Shown: positions 3,440 through 44,585 of the stretch, one piece after another
Numbering within the stretch: position 1 is the first letter of the stretch
Layout: each line of letters opens with the position of its first letter
Source of the DNA: an uncultured bacterium
Lineage (GTDB): Bacteria; Chloroflexota; Anaerolineae; B4-G1
NCBI GenBank assembly: GCA_965612745.1
Contig: CBFDTD010000001.1
Location: forward strand, 6,937 to 70,936
Length of the DNA stretch: 64,000 bases
Direction of reading: 5' to 3'
The notes under the pieces: generated by a model
Told to the model about the DNA's origin: nothing
Databases searched by the model: none
Seen by the model: the letters and a program-made list of their open reading frames with translations, nothing else
Program-made: the position numbers and the translations under genes

Positions 3440-3640
3440 ATAATAACGGTCGTGCTAGACGGGGAGCTGGCGGTGCCCTGTACCCGCAATCCGCCATAGC
3501 GGGGTCGAATTCCCTCCCGAGGGTCGGGCCACTCGATACTGTCGGCGTCAAGCGGTGTTGAAGACCGGGTCCTGCGCGGCAGGAGCCTCCGAACCCCGCC
3601 AGGTCCGGGAGGAAGCAACGGTAAGGAGCCCCTCCTGGGC
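3440..3640 (+). promoter_or_regulatory. Candidate c-di-AMP (ydaO/kimA-type) riboswitch in the long 5' leader of the YabE-like gene
   Basis: Three blocks occur in the expected order. ACGGGGAGC...ACCCG is at about 3459-3490. GGGGUCGAAUUCC is at about 3503-3515 and resembles GGGGUGAAUCC. CCGAACCCCGCCAGGUCCGGGAGGAAGC is at about 3589-3616 and resembles CCGAACCCGNCAGCUAACCUCGUAAGC. A downstream hairpin, ggaggcggcgg-caatc-ccgccgcctcc, sequesters an AGGAGG. The consensus is recalled from memory and was not computed. Confidence 0.35.
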
Positions 3641-3768
3641 GCCGCAGGGGTGCCTAGTCGGAGCCGGTTGATTCCGGTAAGCCGGGTGGTGCGGTTCGAC
3701 GGGGGGTGCACGACCATTCGTCAAAGGAGGCGGCGGCAATCCCGCCGCCTCCCTTGCACCGATAGCGT

Positions 3769-5187
3769 ATGGAGACAACCGCAACCATCCCGCTCAGACG
3801 TGTGCATTTGCCACGAGGACTCAAGGCGTTCGTGGCGCTGACGTTCATCGTCGCTACATTGGCGGCTACCTATCAGACGACGCTGACGCCAGTCACACTG
3901 GTGGTGGATGGTCAAGTGCAGCGGCTGCATACCCACCAGGATACCGTCGCTGCGCTGCTAATGGATGCCGACCTCACTATTCGCCCTGAGGACCTCGTCA
4001 CCCCCGCACCGGACACGCCGCTTAAGCCGGGCTTAATTGTGGAGGTATGGCGGGCCCGCCCCGTGCGTATCAGCGCCGATGGACACATCATCGCGCTCCG
4101 CACCCACGCCACATCGGTCAAGGCAGTGCTGGAGGAGGCGAAAATATCGCTGGGGCCGCACGACAGGGTAGAGGTCGAGGGAGAACTGCGCCCGACCAAT
4201 CCCAGCCTGGCCGACCCTCAACCTGCCCGCGTCACAGTCCACCGCGCCGTTCCCTTCACATTGCACGAGGACGGCCAGGCGACTACGCTCTACACCACCG
4301 CCCCCACCGTCGGAGAGGCGTTACGTCAGGCTGGGCTGACCCTCTACCTGGCCGATTATGTCCAGCCAGGTCTTGGTGAGCGCATATCGGCGGGGATGCA
4401 TATTTACGTTGAGCGCTCTATACCGGTGACGGTGCAGGTGGACGGACGGACAGTCCGCACCCGCACGCATCGGCAGCGCGTGGGTGAGGTACTGGCCGAT
4501 CTGGGCATCGTTCTCACCGGTCAGGACTATACTACACCTACACTCGACGCTCCCCTGGGAAAAGACACCGCCATCCGTGTTGTGCGCGTTAGCGAGCGCT
4601 TCCTGATCGAGCAAGAGCCCATCCCTTTCGAGACAGTGTGGCAGGCTGACCCAGACCTGGAGATTGACCATCAGCGGTTGTTGCAGGAAGGGATGCGGGG
4701 CATACTAGAACGCCGCATCCGCGTACGCTACGAGGATGGTCACGAGGTCGCACGGGCGGTTGAGGACGAGTACGTCGCTGTCCCGCCCATGAACAAGATC
4801 ATCGGCTATGGGACCAAGATCGTCATCCGTACTCTTGACACCCCATCCGGCCCGGTCGAGTACTGGCGCGTGATCCGCATGTTGGCGACCTCTTACTCGG
4901 CCGCGACGGCCGGCACGCCGAGGACCAGTCCCTATTATGGACGCACAGCCACGGGGATGAACATGGGATACGGCATCGTCGCCGTGGATCCACGGGTGAT
5001 CAATCTGCACAGCAGAGTCTACGTGCCCGGCTATGGTATCGGCATCGCTGGTGATACCGGCGGTGCGATCAGAGGGCGGCGCATTGACTTGGGGTACGAC
5101 GACGATAGCCTGGTGCTCTGGTACCGCTGGGTGGACGTCTATCTGCTGACCCCCGTGCCCGATAGGATTGATTACATCCTCGACTAG
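3769..5187 (+). CDS. YabE-like cell-wall protein with an N-terminal TM anchor, DUF348 repeats, a G5 domain and a C-terminal 3D (MltA-like) domain
   Basis: The G5-like segment (ETVWQADPDLE...IIGYGTK) and the C-terminal 3D-domain motifs (GIAGDTGGAIRGRRIDLGYDDD...VDVYLL) are present. Confidence 0.7.
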   Translation: METTATIPLRRVHLPRGLKAFVALTFIVATLAATYQTTLTPVTLVVDGQVQRLHTHQDTVAALLMDADLTIRPEDLVTPAPDTPLKPGLIVEVWRARPVRISADGHIIALRTHATSVKAVLEEAKISLGPHDRVEVEGELRPTNPSLADPQPARVTVHRAVPFTLHEDGQATTLYTTAPTVGEALRQAGLTLYLADYVQPGLGERISAGMHIYVERSIPVTVQVDGRTVRTRTHRQRVGEVLADLGIVLTGQDYTTPTLDAPLGKDTAIRVVRVSERFLIEQEPIPFETVWQADPDLEIDHQRLLQEGMRGILERRIRVRYEDGHEVARAVEDEYVAVPPMNKIIGYGTKIVIRTLDTPSGPVEYWRVIRMLATSYSAATAGTPRTSPYYGRTATGMNMGYGIVAVDPRVINLHSRVYVPGYGIGIAGDTGGAIRGRRIDLGYDDDSLVLWYRWVDVYLLTPVPDRIDYILD

Positions 5188-6090: not shown

Positions 6091-6127
6091 GTTGGGTCTG
6101 GCTAAAATTCGTGGGGAGAAAAGGTCG

Positions 6128-6186
6128 GACGCCCCGCTTCAGCGGGGATTTTCCGGCTGCAGCCGGACGTCCAACCGATTTTAGCC
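6128..6186. repeat. REP-like double-hairpin element (ccccgcttcagcgggg + ccggctgcagccgg), family copy 1
   Basis: The same about 55-bp unit recurs at 31742-31848 (two copies) and at 56802-56850. Confidence 0.5.
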
Positions 6187-6248
6187 ACACCCAAATAGAT
6201 CAGCCAACCATTTGCCTTCACGTCGTGGGCGTGGTAGAATGAGTAATA

Positions 6249-6526: not shown

Positions 6527-7573
6527 ATGAAGACCGAAAGTTTTCGTGGTCGCGACTTCATCACTTTGCTCGACTGGAGCAAGGAGGAAGTCGAGACCAT
6601 CCTGGACGTCGCCCTCGACCTGAAGAGACGGTACGCTATGGGCGAACTCCACGATCATATCCTGCGGGCCAAGACCCTGTTCATGATCTTCTACAACCAA
6701 TCCCTGCGCACCCGCAACTCCTTCGAAGCCGGGATGACCCAATTGGGCGGCCATGCCCATTACCTGGACCCCAGCAAGATCTACACCCCCGCCCTGCCCG
6801 GCAAAGAGGTGGCCTACTCCACCGAGCGCGTCTCCGACGTAGCGCGGGTGCTCTCCCGCATGGGCAATGCCATCGCCATCAGGTGTTATGGCGATCCGGT
6901 GGATTGGGTCTACGGCGGGGCCAACGAGATGATCCGCAACTTCGCCTACTGGGCCGACATCCCCGTGTTGAATATGGAAGACGATAAGTACCATCCCTTT
7001 CAGGCCCTGGCCGACGTCCTGACGGTCAAAGAGAAGTTCGGCACCTTCAAGGGCGTGAAATTCGTCATGTCCTGGGCCTACTCCCCCAGTGTCCACAAAC
7101 CCCGTGCGGTGCCCCAGAGCGCCATTATCGCCGCCACGATGATGGGCTGCGATACCGTGCTGGCCCATCCCCCGGAGATGGCGCTAGACCCCGAGGTCAT
7201 TGCCGCCTGCGAGAAATACGCCCAGATGAACGGCTCCTCCTTCGAGGTCGTCCACGATTTTGAGGAGGCGGCAAAGGGAGCCCACATTCTCTACCCCAAA
7301 GCCTGGGCGCCAGTTCAAATCTTCAAGCCCCCTGTGGGTGAGGACGACCCGCAACTGGCGCAGGAAATCTTCGATCGCTACAAGGACTGGAAGGCCACAC
7401 CCGAGTACATAGCCCTGGCCGATCCCAACGCCATTTATATGCACTGCCTGCCTGCCGATCGGAGTTGGGAGGTCGAGGACGAGGTCATTGATGGCCCACA
7501 GTCGGTGGTCTTCGACGAGGCCGAGAACCGACTGCACGTGCAGAAGGCAGTGATGAGTTTGGTGATGCGGTAG
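6527..7573 (+). CDS. YgeW-type (unknown/oxamate-type) carbamoyltransferase, paralog 1
   Basis: It belongs to the OTC/ATC superfamily. The carbamoyl-phosphate motif is SLRTRNSFE. The second-substrate loop motif is YMHCLPADRS. SWAYSPS...AHPPE blocks are present, and the overall pattern matches E. coli YgeW as recalled from memory. The RBS is aaaggagg. Confidence 0.75.
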   Translation: MKTESFRGRDFITLLDWSKEEVETILDVALDLKRRYAMGELHDHILRAKTLFMIFYNQSLRTRNSFEAGMTQLGGHAHYLDPSKIYTPALPGKEVAYSTERVSDVARVLSRMGNAIAIRCYGDPVDWVYGGANEMIRNFAYWADIPVLNMEDDKYHPFQALADVLTVKEKFGTFKGVKFVMSWAYSPSVHKPRAVPQSAIIAATMMGCDTVLAHPPEMALDPEVIAACEKYAQMNGSSFEVVHDFEEAAKGAHILYPKAWAPVQIFKPPVGEDDPQLAQEIFDRYKDWKATPEYIALADPNAIYMHCLPADRSWEVEDEVIDGPQSVVFDEAENRLHVQKAVMSLVMR

Positions 7574-10421: not shown

Positions 10422-10845
10422 GGGGATGACAGGCTTCGACGGGGAAGGCTGATCACGGACGGCAAGCCGGGGCGCTCTGCCCCCGTTAACAACGGAGCAC
10501 ACACTCCAAAGTGCCAACAACACTTGGATCCCTGTCCCGCAGGCCGCGATGGCTGCCGTTCCACTGGCGGCCTAATCCGGCCCGAGGGATAAACTGACCG
10601 CACAGACGGTCACGTCCGCCCTGGTCTCGCGCCGGCAGGCCGGGGGCCGGGCGTAAGAGAGCCGGCGTGCGGCGCTCTGACGCCGATAGGAGCGCTCAAG
10701 CGGGAGTTTCGGCTCCCATCGGCTAGGCCCGGGTGTAGCGCGGTCGGCGGCGACTCCCCGGGCGAGAGGTAAAAGGCCGACTATGCTTGTAGAAGTCCCT
10801 GGTCGAATTCCTCGGACGCGGGTTCGATTCCCGCCATCTCCACCA
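10422..10845 (+). ncRNA. ssrA: tmRNA (SsrA)
   Basis: The 5' end is GGGGAUGACAGGCUUCGACGGGG. The 3' end is a tRNA-like GGACGCGGGUUCGAUUCCCGCCAUCUCCACCA with an encoded CCA. An internal tag reading frame ends ...AAMAAVPLAA followed by TAA. Confidence 0.85.
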
Positions 10846-21848: not shown

Positions 21849-22508
21849 CTATTCCTCTTCCGGTGCCTGCAAGCAGTAACCCAGTCGGCGGATCGTGCGC
21901 AGGTAGACTGGCGACCTGGAGTCTTCCTCGATTGCCTTGCGCACCCAATGGATGTGGACATCGAGAGTGCGCGTATCACCCACATAGTCGGTCTCCCATA
22001 CCTGCTTCATCAAGAAGGCCCGGGTCAAAATCTCGCCCGGATGGCGCATAAAGGTTTCGAGGAGGCGAGCCTGCTTAGGGGTGAGATGGGTTTCGCGCTC
22101 ACCGCGGATAACACACCGCTGATTGGTTTTGAAGACCACATCGCCTACCCGTAGCACTTCGAGCAGTCCATCTATCCGGTCAAGCAGTTTCTCGGCGGAA
22201 AAGGGATAATGCAGATAGGCATGCGCCCCCACGCTACGGTCAATCTTCTCTCCTTCTGGCAGCAGCATCAATACAGGGATTTCGTGAGCGGCCTTCTGCA
22301 AAGCCTGGCAGAAGCGGTGGCTGTTAAAGCGGAGTGAGGGGGAATCCAACACTATCAACGCTGGATGTGCTTCATGTACTTTGGCCCATGCTTCTTTTCG
22401 TGTGCGGGCCACAACAATATGGTACCCCTGGTCGTTAAGAACCGGGACCAGATGCCCTGCCATGGGCTTTCTCCCCCCCACAATCAGGATAGTGTAGACT
22501 GGCACCAC
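21849..22508 (-). CDS. OmpR-family DNA-binding response regulator
   Basis: It has a receiver domain plus a winged-helix Trans_reg_C domain (...YVGDTRTLDVHIHWVRKAIE...). Confidence 0.8.
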   Translation of the reverse strand: MVPVYTILIVGGRKPMAGHLVPVLNDQGYHIVVARTRKEAWAKVHEAHPALIVLDSPSLRFNSHRFCQALQKAAHEIPVLMLLPEGEKIDRSVGAHAYLHYPFSAEKLLDRIDGLLEVLRVGDVVFKTNQRCVIRGERETHLTPKQARLLETFMRHPGEILTRAFLMKQVWETDYVGDTRTLDVHIHWVRKAIEEDSRSPVYLRTIRRLGYCLQAPEEE

Positions 22509-22641
22509 CTGCTATATTCTCCTTGCTGCCTGTACTGGGCCACGGAGCGGGTTGTATTATACTTCATCCCATTGCTGAGGGCAAGTCAAGCAGACAGCCA
22601 CCCAACGGTTGACAGCAGGACACCAGAGTACCACAAGGTAA

Positions 22642-22728
22642 GGGGGTCGTAGTGGCGACTTCAGTCGCTCTGACCTCGCTTTGAACGACTGAAGTCGTTA
22701 CTACGAGCAAAATCGCCAGTGTGTAGGG
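22642..22728. repeat. About 87-bp direct repeat, copy 1, containing a 21-bp imperfect inverted repeat (tcgtagtggcgacttcagtcg...cgactgaagtcgttactacga)
   Basis: It is near-identical to 23075-23163. The pair flanks a roughly 350-bp non-coding segment. Confidence 0.7.
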
Positions 22729-23074
22729 CAACGGATGGACAGCGGATAAACGGATGAGATGACCGACTTTATCATCGTTGGCTCGGTGCGGCGATTTTGC
22801 CGCCGGACACCTTTGGGCAAGGGGTATCACCGTGGGATATGCTTCGCTCCTTAGCCCGGGCCACTACTCCCTCGGTGTTCACTCTCTCACCATCTGGATA
22901 CGCCCTCGGCAAGAGTGCCCGCCGGGGAATGCGGTGCTTCCGGAGGTTGCAATGCCGGAAGGCTATCCGCTTATCCGTTTCTCATCCGCTGCCCCGGTAA
23001 ACAGATACTGCTGCGAGGCCACGAAAGGGCGGCCGGCGCGGCCTACTTCTGCGCACTGATGAACCGCAAGATAT

Positions 23075-23163
23075 GGGGGTCGTAGTGGCGACTTCAGTCG
23101 CTCTGACCTCGCTCTGAACGACTGAAGTCGTTACTACGAGCAAAATCGCCGGTGTGTAGGGGG
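23075..23163. repeat. About 87-bp direct repeat, copy 2, with the same internal hairpin
   Basis: The sequence identity is read directly. Confidence 0.7.
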
Positions 23164-23212
23164 ATGATCAGTCGCCGGCGCTACAGAGTGCTGCGTTGTT
23201 GACCGCTAATGG

Positions 23213-23752
23213 CTAGCCGCTGGCCAATGTTGCACCTTTGCGTAATGCCTCCTTGTTCAACCCTAGCAGTTTGCGGTGGCGCTCCGGCAGGTGATCGTCC
23301 AGTGCCTGCTCCACTGCCTCCAGTGGCACGACGCCGGTGGCCTGCACCAGCGCACCCAAACAGATCACGTTCGCCAGCCGGGTGTTCCCAACCTCCTCGG
23401 CCATGTCGGTGGCGGGGACGTAGAAAACGCGGATGTCGTCTCGCTCGCTCTTCTGCGGAACGAGCGAACTGTTCACCACCAGCACACCGCCCGCTTTTAC
23501 TGCCGGCTCGAAGGCCTCCATCGAGGGAAGGTTGAGCACGATGGCCGCGCTGGGCCGCCGCACCAGCGGCGAGCCGATTTCCTCGTCGGAGACAACGACG
23601 GTGCAACGGGCCTTGCCGCCGCGCATCTCTGGACCGTAGGAGGGAATCCATGTCACGTGATAACCGCTGTCCATCGCAGCGTAGGCGAGCAATTGCCCGG
23701 CGAAGAGCGCCCCTTGCCCCCCAAAGCCAGAAATGATGATCTCTTCCTGCAT
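23213..23752 (-). CDS. 2-oxoacid:ferredoxin oxidoreductase, gamma subunit
   Basis: The N-terminus [14 protein letters not shown] is typical of POR/VOR/KOR gamma subunits. Confidence 0.85.
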
Positions 23753-23863
23753 CCTGTGCCTCCTGCTTCCTGCCTCCTGCTTCCTGCCTCCTGCCTCCTG
23801 CCTCTTGCCTCCTGCCTCCTGCTTCCTGCTTCCTGCTTCCTGCCTCCTGCCTCCTGCTGCCTC
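23753..23863. repeat. Heptamer tandem array (CCTGCYT)x about 15, filling the whole beta-gamma spacer. On the mRNA (minus) strand it reads as repeated AGGAGGC/AGGAAGC, which is Shine-Dalgarno-like.
   Basis: The array is directly visible, and its boundaries coincide with the beta stop codon and the gamma start codon. Confidence 0.85.
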
Positions 23864-43586: not shown

Positions 43587-44585
43587 ATGGCTGAGAGTGC
43601 TTCTGAGCGACGCAGGCGGGAAGAGGAGGCCCAGTTCGCCGAGCGAGGTGTAAGCCTGTGGCAGGACGCCTGGCGGCGATTGCTGCGCAACCGTATGGCG
43701 GTGGCAGGGCTGCTCTTTATTGGTTTCCTGGTCTTTTGCTTTATCACCGCCGACTTTCTTCCACCGTACAGTTACCGGGAGGCCGACTACGAGAACACGC
43801 GCATCGGCCCGCGCTGGCCCGACCATATTTTCGGCACCGATAAACTGGGGCGAGACGTGTTTAGTCGAGTGTGGTGGGGCACACGTGTTTCTCTCACTGT
43901 TGCAGTCGTTGGTTCGCTGACGGCGCTGGTCATCGGTGTCACTTACGGGGCCATCTCCGGCTACCTGGGTGGCCGGATAGATAACCTCATGATGCGCTTT
44001 GTGGACGTGATGTATGGCTTCCCCACCCTCCTTTTCATCATCCTGATTATGGTGGTCCTGCCGTCGGAGACCGCTATCCAGGGTATGATCAATATCTTCA
44101 TCGCTATCGGTGTCGTGGGGTGGATGGGGATGGCCCGCCTTGTCCGGGGGCAGTTCCTCTCCCTGCGAGAGAAGGAGTTCGTCCTGGCGGCGCGAATGGT
44201 CGGTGCCGGCCCGGCCCGTATCATCTCCCGTCACCTGTTGCCCAACAGCCTGGGTCCGGCCATCGTCTCGCTGACGCTGGGTATCCCGAGCCTGATCCTG
44301 ACCGAGGCGGTGTTGAGTTTCATTGGTCTGGGCGTACCACCGCCGTACCCCAGTTGGGGCCAGATGGTGTCCGAAGGGTGGCGCGGGCTGCGGGCCACGC
44401 CCCACCTGACCGTCTTCCCCGGCCTGGCGATTAGTCTGACTATGCTGGCTTTCAACTTCCTGGGGGACGGTCTGCGGGACGCGCTGGACCCGACAATGCG
44501 GGGCACCGCTTTGGTCCGCGCAGCACGACGGAAGAAGCGGCGAGCGAGGAGGGCAGCGCGTAGAGCGGCAGCCAAGGCCGCTTAG
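43587..44585 (+). CDS. ABC transporter permease (DppC/OppC-like)
   Basis: The DppC pattern is present. The C-terminal tail is basic (RRKKRRARRAARRAA). Confidence 0.8.
   Translation: MAESASERRRREEEAQFAERGVSLWQDAWRRLLRNRMAVAGLLFIGFLVFCFITADFLPPYSYREADYENTRIGPRWPDHIFGTDKLGRDVFSRVWWGTRVSLTVAVVGSLTALVIGVTYGAISGYLGGRIDNLMMRFVDVMYGFPTLLFIILIMVVLPSETAIQGMINIFIAIGVVGWMGMARLVRGQFLSLREKEFVLAARMVGAGPARIISRHLLPNSLGPAIVSLTLGIPSLILTEAVLSFIGLGVPPPYPSWGQMVSEGWRGLRATPHLTVFPGLAISLTMLAFNFLGDGLRDALDPTMRGTALVRAARRKKRRARRAARRAAAKAA

Follow-up and report, generated by a model that had tools for sequence, protein, structure and literature searches.

Tandem REP doublets and a truncated MITE lie side by side in an intergenic spacer of a Chloroflexota genome

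The window analyzed here was the whole stretch of 64,000 nucleotides. In it, a 704-nt spacer at positions 22509 to 23212 separated two minus-strand genes, a response regulator gene and the gene for an oxidoreductase gamma subunit. The end of the oxidoreductase operon was located on one side of the spacer, and the promoter of the response regulator gene was located on the other. Inside the spacer, a segment of about 350 bp was bracketed by direct repeats that could form hairpins. The earlier note on this DNA, which was made from the letters alone, suggested that the block was either a small mobile element with hairpin ends or a structured noncoding RNA (ncRNA) gene with flanking terminator-like repeats. 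Which of these it was, if either, is the question that we address here. Our results indicated that the spacer very probably contained two unrelated types of nonautonomous repeat located side by side, namely REP doublets and a truncated MITE. The features that we identified are listed in Table 1.

Table 1. Genes, promoter-like site, and repeat features of the locus, in window coordinates
Feature	Position	Strand	Remarks
Response regulator, OmpR-type	21849..22508	-	Followed by rpsB-tsf-pyrH-frr
Promoter-like site of the response regulator (TTGCCC-17-TATAAT)	22556..22584	-	Outside the repeat region; kept in relatives free of the repeats
Direct repeat 1, REP doublet (REPIN-like) with 17-nt shared left flank and 22-nt shared right tail (GCAAAATCGCCAGTGTGTAGGG)	22630..22728	+	
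REP unit, left arm of hairpin 1: GTAG-T-GGCGAC-TTCA-GTCGC (GTAGTGGCGACTTCAGTCGC)	22649..22668	+	
REP unit, right arm of hairpin 1, inverted: GTAG-T-AACGAC-TTCA-GTCGT (GTAGTAACGACTTCAGTCGT)	22685..22704	-	
MITE copy, 5'-truncated, long internal variant	22729..23008	+	Begins at element position 29/30; left TIR and any TSD missing
Left subterminal repeat of the MITE (CGGATAA / CGGATGAGA motifs)	22740..22759	+	Pairs with 22964-22991
Right subterminal repeat of the MITE (TATCCGCTTATCCGTTTCTCATCCGCTG)	22964..22991	+	
Right terminal inverted repeat of the MITE (CGGTAAACAGATAC)	22995..23008	+	
54-nt spacer from the MITE end to repeat 2	23009..23062		Found only at this locus, in every strain
Direct repeat 2, again a REP doublet, with the flanks of repeat 1	23063..23161	+	Ends 51 nt past the stop codon of POR gamma
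REP unit, left arm of hairpin 2	23082..23101	+	
REP unit, right arm of hairpin 2, inverted	23118..23137	-	
2-Oxoacid:ferredoxin oxidoreductase gamma subunit (PF01558; POR gamma)	23213..23752	-	Final gene of its own operon

The direct repeats were 99 nt long, were spaced 433 nt apart from start to start, and were identical at 94 of 99 positions (95%). They had been described as repeats of about 87 bp that each contained a 21-bp hairpin, and this description was borne out except that the repeats were slightly longer; the 87-nt portion contained only 2 mismatches. In repeat 1, the arms of an imperfect palindrome occupied positions 22647-22670 and 22683-22706 (24 nt each, with a 12-nt loop), and in repeat 2, the arms occupied positions 23080-23106 and 23113-23139 (27 nt each, with a 6-nt loop). 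The arms were 85 to 88% complementary in both repeats, and each repeat folded with 21 consecutive pairs. The predicted folding energies of the hairpins were -22 to -23 kcal/mol as DNA (z = -6.4 and -7.6) and -40 to -41 kcal/mol as plus-strand RNA, for which none of 200 shuffled sequences folded as well; z-scores ranged from -5.8 to -8.0 overall. The 20-mers of the palindrome arms did not occur elsewhere in the 64-kb window (about 0.01 occurrences were expected by chance). A third copy of the 99-nt unit was absent from every sequence that we compared, and any mobility of the 99-nt repeat as a unit is therefore putative.

Each hairpin consisted of two GTAG-tagged REP sequences (GTAGTRRCGACTTYAGTCG) in inverted orientation, which is the layout of a REPIN or head-head dimer. 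The arms shared one pattern, which consisted of GTAG, a single T, and a 5- to 6-bp palindrome with a TTCA loop, and the pattern was the same in repeat 2. The small hairpins formed by single REPs were predicted to fold at -4.4 and -4.6 kcal/mol (DNA). A GTAG tag beside a short palindrome is the hallmark of a REP (PMC3733652), and two inverted REPs that fold together constitute a REPIN (PMC3116915, Bertels & Rainey 2011). Both descriptions applied to the repeats in the spacer; that is, a short imperfect palindrome had the tetranucleotide at one of its ends, and the two inverted REPs, with a short spacer between them, formed one hairpin with the GTAG tags facing outward. REPs of the GTAG type are known in Chloroflexi and Cyanobacteria, they form head-head dimers, and the dimers can be tandemly reiterated together with flanking DNA (PMC3733652, Di Nocera et al. 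2013). The exact REP strings were not found in a literature search, in which an 11-mer matched unrelated primers only, and the REP string did not occur in PMC3733652, either in the text or in the supplements. In single-stranded DNA, each REP is a 5- to 6-bp hairpin with GTAG ahead of it, and this is the form recognized by REP-associated tyrosine (HUH/Y1) transposases.

We searched one genome per species (GTDB) with the complement of the right-arm REP, the 20-mer ACGACTGAAGTCGTTACTAC. Exact matches were present in at least 118 genome stretches, and those listed were mainly from Chloroflexota and Oscillatoriales. Specifically, the matches listed included about 60 loci in Chloroflexota (Anaerolineae, Caldilineales, Herpetosiphon, and Chloroflexia), about 52 loci in filamentous cyanobacteria (Oscillatoria, Laspinema, Phormidium, and others), and single loci in Acetothermia, Terriglobia, Blastocatellia, Zixibacteria, and Poribacteria. 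The REP family was multicopy in other genomes among the matches listed; Oscillatoria sp. HE19RPO and Laspinema, for example, had it in many contigs. Of the 70 exact matches listed for Chloroflexota, 34 were the inverted doublet seen in the window, with a loop whose median length was about 15 nt, and the cyanobacterial matches listed were mostly head-to-tail arrays with a period of 31 to 36 nt. When 14 REP-bearing loci were compared with Rfam, borderline CRISPR-DR28 matches elsewhere in those loci were the only matches found. A CRISPR reading was considered and dropped for lack of regular spacers.

A tblastn search with E. coli YafM as the query identified homologous RAYT ORFs in five of these loci. 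The ORFs were 215 to 274 aa long and had this REP on both sides; four were in Anaerolineae (L098, L100, L091, and L028), and one was in a cyanobacterium (L088). The L098 ORF scored 89.1 bits against NCBIfam NF047646 (REP_Tyr_transpos), for which the cut-off is 80, and a subthreshold 17.5 bits against Pfam Y1_Tnp, for which the cut-off is 23. The other four RAYTs were 40 to 69% identical to the L098 ORF, and the HUH and YIxxNP motifs were present. At the C-terminal motif, these RAYTs had VWYKFxDxxIR in place of WQxxFxEH, and for this reason a regular expression for that motif had no matches. Since RAYT ORFs were flanked by the REP in five loci, the REP family of the hairpins in the window has cognate RAYTs, and in other genomes a cognate RAYT flanked by this REP (a REPtron) was present.

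In the window itself, the REP was present as the two doublets at this locus only, and genes for a RAYT, a Y1 transposase, tnpA, and tnpB were all absent from the 64 kb. The REP was also absent from about 130 kb of metagenome contigs that carried the MITE. Because the REP was confined to this locus in 64 kb and the window lacked a RAYT, a REP/RAYT system that still operates in this genome is only putative. The doublets resembled the REPINs and BIMEs of Pseudomonas fluorescens and E. coli in their GTAG tag and short imperfect palindrome, in the folding of the inverted pair into one long hairpin, in their extragenic position just 3' of an operon, in their tandem reiteration with flanks, and in the location of the REP beside RAYTs elsewhere. 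They differed from REPINs and BIMEs in being restricted to one locus in 64 kb of a window without a RAYT. Furthermore, unlike REPIN doublets, the same REP formed long head-to-tail arrays (period, 31 to 36 nt) in Oscillatoriales.

Described REP families are usually species or genus specific, whereas this REP core was identical base for base across several phyla. The core ACGACTGAAGTCGTTACTAC was the same in Chloroflexota, Oscillatoriales, Acetothermia, Acidobacteriota, Zixibacteria, and Poribacteria, and the RAYTs had diverged to 40% identity. One might suppose that this conservation reflects constraint, so that either the REP/RAYT pair is a recognition system of unusual age and rigidity or the REP serves the host, for example as a place where a conserved factor binds DNA or RNA. 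We regard this idea as rather improbable. If constraint rather than recent transfer between phyla were responsible, the doublets in the window would be functional operon-end elements and not junk. The finding of a REP/RAYT family that is nearly unchanged between Chloroflexota and filamentous cyanobacteria is a by-product of our analysis that may interest those who study REPIN-RAYT coevolution.

We now turn to the segment between the repeats. As the earlier note had stated, this core had no convincing ORF; the ORFs of 46 to 93 aa overlapped it mechanically, and since the internal deletions that distinguished related copies spanned 34, 106, and 116 alignment columns, the core was not coding. The core was a 5'-truncated copy of a MITE of the TIR/TSD type. 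A 21-mer from the MITE unit matched 20 contigs in a metagenome collection, and 16 of the contigs carried the unit. The other four contigs (L140, L147, L149, and L153) were AT-rich, had only the 21-mer in common with the unit, and were treated as chance matches. We assumed that the contigs with full MITEs came from the same organism or from closely related organisms. Copies of the MITE were found in at least nine gene contexts in these contigs, and no REP hairpin accompanied them.

Full copies of the MITE had 14-bp TIRs (GTATYTGTTTACCG) that were complementary at 13 of 14 positions; the copies began with GTATTTGTTTACCG and ended with CGGTAAACAGATAC, and three CGGATRA-type motifs were located inside each end. 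Of seven loci with both flanks available, six had 8-bp TSDs (four perfect and two matching at 7 of 8 positions), and L144 had no TSD. The TSDs observed were AAGGAGGC, AATTTTAT, GAAGGCCG, CATTATTC, CTCTACAA/G, and CTTTGGAT/C. Among 12 aligned copies, which ranged from 127 to 309 nt in length, the ends were nearly invariant and the interior contained nested deletions. The unit was thus small, noncoding, and present in multiple copies at unrelated sites, with TIRs and a TSD of fixed length, as is characteristic of MITEs. The copy in the window was assigned to the MITE by its 89 to 92% identity to full copies elsewhere. It had no TSD because its left end was deleted, and this 5' truncation was present in every strain at the locus. 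Since the left end of the copy abutted repeat 1 without a TSD, a deletion or recombination event must have occurred there. As a separate observation, the 11-mer GCAAAATCGCC occurred in the tails of both direct repeats and, in inverted orientation, within the MITE, and was absent from the rest of the window.

An 8-bp TSD is compatible with IS6, IS256, ISL3, IS66, and IS1595, and because it is shared by several IS families, the family of this MITE is not assignable. None of the sequences compared contained an autonomous IS with the TIRs of the MITE, and no pair of these TIRs enclosed a transposase gene. Two candidates for a parent IS, an IS1595-like fragment in L143 and an IS1-like 1.34-kb insertion in L145, were rejected since their ends were unrelated to those of the MITE. 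No match was found in a plasmid collection searched in distant mode with the 99-nt repeat and the full MITE as queries or in scans of viral contigs with the hairpin and the core as queries. The MITE was like other bacterial MITEs (Correia/NEMIS, RUP, ERIC, and cyanobacterial Nezha) in being short, noncoding, and present in multiple intergenic copies with TIRs and a fixed-length TSD, and it shared with them internal-deletion variants and a strong predicted hairpin. It differed from the named MITEs tested in its sequence, which was unrelated to theirs, in the head-to-tail array with 1-nt junctions formed by local copies, and in the truncation of the window copy.

The arrangement of the spacer varied among strains. 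Contigs with identical flanking proteins, which came from hydrothermal-sediment metagenomes and two Chloroflexota MAGs, shared the locus, and all 18 of the related contigs that reached the site carried the doublets. The spacing between the hairpin repeats was 328, 433, 632, or 638 nt because the number of MITE units in head-to-tail order was one, two, or at least three. The window allele consisted of the truncated left part and a long interior in a single MITE copy, and two contigs (L002 and L138) had the same truncated left part with a short interior. Both MITE copies were present in L001, L005, and L012, and at least three copies were present in L006. Tandem copies were joined by one nucleotide (a single C) rather than by an 8-bp TSD, and the one-nucleotide joins made simple repeated insertion an inadequate explanation for the array. 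Head-to-tail dimers and abutted-IR junctions are formed by IS30, IS21, IS3/IS911, and IS256. The array resembled the dimers of these copy-out-paste-in elements in having a single-nucleotide gap instead of a TSD between the ends of successive copies, a resemblance that we offer as an analogy only. Many assemblies broke inside the region, and L003 and L004 were chimeric, being joined to other loci there. The repeats explain such breaks and misjoins at this site in the Chloroflexota lineage. A further by-product of this comparison was the MITE itself, which was previously unnamed, has 8-bp TSDs, and was active enough to produce copy number differences among the hydrothermal-sediment strains.

Could the hairpins and the core nevertheless be parts of one unit, as the earlier note had envisaged? 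If the core were a structured ncRNA gene, with the flanking repeats as terminator-like or processing hairpins, its fold and its conservation should be considered. The core did fold somewhat better than shuffled sequences (z = -2.4 for the plus strand and -3.5 for the minus strand), its sequence was 89 to 92% conserved across copies, and the internal complementarity that had been noticed in it was real and yielded a long closing helix. That helix was formed by the subterminal inverted repeat of the MITE, and we attribute the fold of the core to the inverted ends of the MITE. In the alignment of 12 copies, the covariation term was unfavorable (+1.77), and double changes were seen in 2 of 57 pairs, both in one diverged copy. 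The copies shed most of the interior while the ends were kept, and they were flanked by TSDs. No match to Rfam was found at the locus when the whole window was searched at the gathering threshold, and a search of positions 22400 to 23400 at an E value of 10 or less yielded a single match at the level of chance (E = 9.5); comparison of the core with the Rfam models thus identified no family. A scan for tRNA and tmRNA genes at the locus found nothing, the only promoter-like site found was that of the response regulator gene, outside the repeat region, and terminator-like sites were absent from the repeat region. Taken together, these results make an ncRNA gene with terminator-like repeats very improbable, and the core is better described as a MITE.

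The idea that the whole hairpin-core-hairpin block is one mobile element with hairpin ends, such as an IS200/IS605 derivative or a RAYT cassette, had in its favor the bracketing of a noncoding segment by hairpin-bearing direct repeats and the finding that the REP family of the hairpins is indeed associated with RAYTs. In this respect, the suggestion that the hairpins look like RAYT- or REP-type substrates was right, since they are inverted GTAG REP doublets of a family that flanks RAYTs; the repeats do not mobilize the core, however. At nine or more other loci, the core had TIRs and 8-bp TSDs of its own and no REP hairpin, REP doublets without the core were present in at least dozens of genomes among the matches listed, and the combined block was found at this locus only. 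The ends of IS200/IS605 elements are distinct left and right hairpins, whereas the block had 99-nt direct repeats, and with tnpA and tnpB absent, a hairpin-ended unit of the IS200/IS605 kind was not found. We therefore give hardly any credence to a composite element. Indeed, the 87-bp unit was essentially a dispersed REP copy, a possibility that the earlier note itself had set against its proposals. The direct repeats could also be imagined as att- or attC-type sites of a small integrated cassette, given that hairpin-forming direct repeats around an insert of variable length superficially resemble integron attC arrays. The hairpin ends read GTTACTA, which does not fit the attC core (RYYYAAC / GTTRRRY), and the attC reading was dropped for lack of core sites. 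In addition, the variation in length was entirely in the MITE copy number, with no cassette exchange, no integrase gene adjoined the locus, and the repeat is a member of a REP family that has RAYTs. We consider this reading very improbable. REP doublets with RAYTs and MITEs with TIRs and TSDs are both well-described kinds of repeat, and here they are found side by side. For annotation, the segment is best masked as a repeat region made up of a cluster of REP doublets and a MITE, and it should not be recorded as an RNA gene or as a new transposon with hairpin ends.

How might a pair of REP doublets and a MITE have come to occupy the same spacer? The two tandem 99-nt doublets would most likely have arisen by local reiteration of one doublet together with its flanks, in the manner known from ordered REPIN clusters. 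Identity between the two repeats continued past the doublet for 17 nt on the left and 22 nt on the right, and these extensions were shared with no other locus compared; such identity is the signature of reiteration with flanks. It is also conceivable that the doublets were two independent, adjacent insertions mediated by a RAYT. REPINs are thought to be mobilized as doublets, and unordered REPIN clusters arise by insertion beside existing REPINs (PMC3116915). The two copies differed at 5 of 99 positions, and repeat 1 was more variable between strains than repeat 2, which would suit this explanation. Against it stand the shared extensions and the absence of the REP from the rest of the 64 kb, which would make two independent insertions within 433 nt an unlikely coincidence. 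Judging from these sequence comparisons, we consider independent insertions unlikely, and local reiteration is favored rather than proven.

After such a reiteration, a MITE of the classical cut- or copy-and-paste type may have entered the DNA between the doublets and multiplied into a head-to-tail array, with loss of the left end beside repeat 1. Recombination among the tandem MITE copies could then have generated the one-, two-, and three-copy alleles and the long and short chimeras, and the window would represent the one-copy long variant. We infer this order of events, along with mobilization in trans and any effect on expression, from the arrangement of the repeats.

Relatives of the strain provided some information about when the repeats arrived. 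Three relatives had regulators that were 84%, 74%, and 73% identical to the one in the window; the promoter was kept in these relatives, and neither repeat was present. The absence of both repeats from this promoter region indicated that both were recent arrivals in the lineage. The genes upstream differed in those relatives, so the comparison was informative about the absence of the repeats but did not provide the clean empty site that had been sought. Likewise, among the fetched contigs and the window, a search for empty sites corresponding to the other MITE loci found no overlap.

Finally, the position of repeat 2 at the end of the oxidoreductase operon raises the matter of its transcript. 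In the minus-strand RNA that would be made by read-through from the operon, repeat 2 was predicted to form a hairpin of -37 kcal/mol without a U tract. REPs in E. coli are established as stabilizers of 3' ends or as barriers. The predicted repeat 2 hairpin would fit such a role as a 3'-end stabilizer or barrier and would not fit that of an intrinsic terminator.

The RAYT genes (REP-associated tyrosine transposases) that carry a REP on either side shared only 40 to 69% pairwise identity across the five stretches in which they were located (L098, L100, L091, L028, and the cyanobacterial L088), yet the flanking REP 19-mer was identical. The longest RAYT open reading frames (ORFs) began within the upstream REP, which was translated there as TTEVVTT or TTSVV. 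The layout of the REP 20-mer was also compared across phyla in L019 to L136. In Oscillatoria, Laspinema, and Phormidium, it was repeated head to tail every 31 to 36 nt in long arrays, and such arrays accounted for 93 of the 168 exact matches among those listed. Chloroflexota copies occurred mainly as inverted doublets (34 of 70 among the matches listed).

In relatives, three copies of CATTTGAGGGAAY were found as direct repeats upstream of the conserved response-regulator promoter, and these repeats may be regulator binding sites. They were absent from the window, in which the REP/MITE block occupied that place.

The MITE copy in L137, which is the same as that in L141, was inserted exactly into a Shine-Dalgarno sequence, and the 8-bp duplication AAGGAGGC kept an intact Shine-Dalgarno copy ahead of the downstream ATG. 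A comparison of L145 with L148 revealed a 1.34-kb IS1-like insertion with a 415-aa transposase-like ORF and inverted ends GGTACTGTCCCTTAACTGCC, the presence or absence of which was strain dependent. A 616-nt indel adjoined a MITE locus, and the two contigs concerned (L151 and L156) were 99.7% identical apart from it.

Two assemblies, L003 and L004 (MAG GCA_011192185.1), were fused to unrelated loci precisely at the MITE or the REP doublet. L003 ran on into the RidA locus of L144. In L004, the sequence beyond a stretch of Ns was that of the ftsZ 3' end. These joins look like repeat-induced chimeras.

The window contained another small dispersed repeat, which had two GC hairpins and the ends GGCTAAAAT/ATTTTAGCC (CCCCGCTTCAGCGGGG, TCCGGCTGCAGCCGGA). 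It was 92% identical to a copy in L155, and related copies were also found in L145 and L148.

As for RNA genes, a tRNA-Arg(CCT) of 101 nt was called by ARAGORN and was unreported by the Rfam tRNA model at the gathering threshold; the call may represent an intron-containing tRNA, an unusual tRNA, or a false positive.

Coordinates of repeats, insertions, and genes in the window and in the compared stretches (L-numbers; coordinates local to each)
Feature	Location	Score (bits)
RAYT genes, REP on either side	L098 6890-7564; L100 2446-3093; L091 244-906; L028 4568-5215; L088 2656-3480	
Example REP stretches	L034 1731-2193; L037 22-257; L128 7084-7314	
CATTTGAGGGAAY direct repeats	L158 ~3790-4000; L160 1-268	
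MITE copy	L137 1020-1345	
IS1-like insertion	L145 1255-2594 vs L148 1224/1232	
616-nt indel	L151 784-1399 vs L156 974/975	
Joins to unrelated loci	L003, L004 ~6700-7100	
Second dispersed repeat	window 6096-6203; L155 2445-2551; L145 and L148 near 1200-1290	
Bacterial SRP RNA, large type	window 3450-3713	179.6
tmRNA, 424 nt, long insertions relative to model	window 10422-10845	132.9
tRNA-Arg(CCT), ARAGORN call	window 44123-44223	
TGCCTCC array	window 23757-23857	

In the oxidoreductase operon, the whole spacer from the beta-subunit stop codon to the gamma-subunit ATG consisted of the heptamer TGCCTCC, repeated in tandem 14.4 times. Read on the minus strand, which is the coding one here, each unit is GGAGGCA and is Shine-Dalgarno-like. 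The copy number was strain variable, with beta/gamma spacers of 76, 83, or 111 nt.
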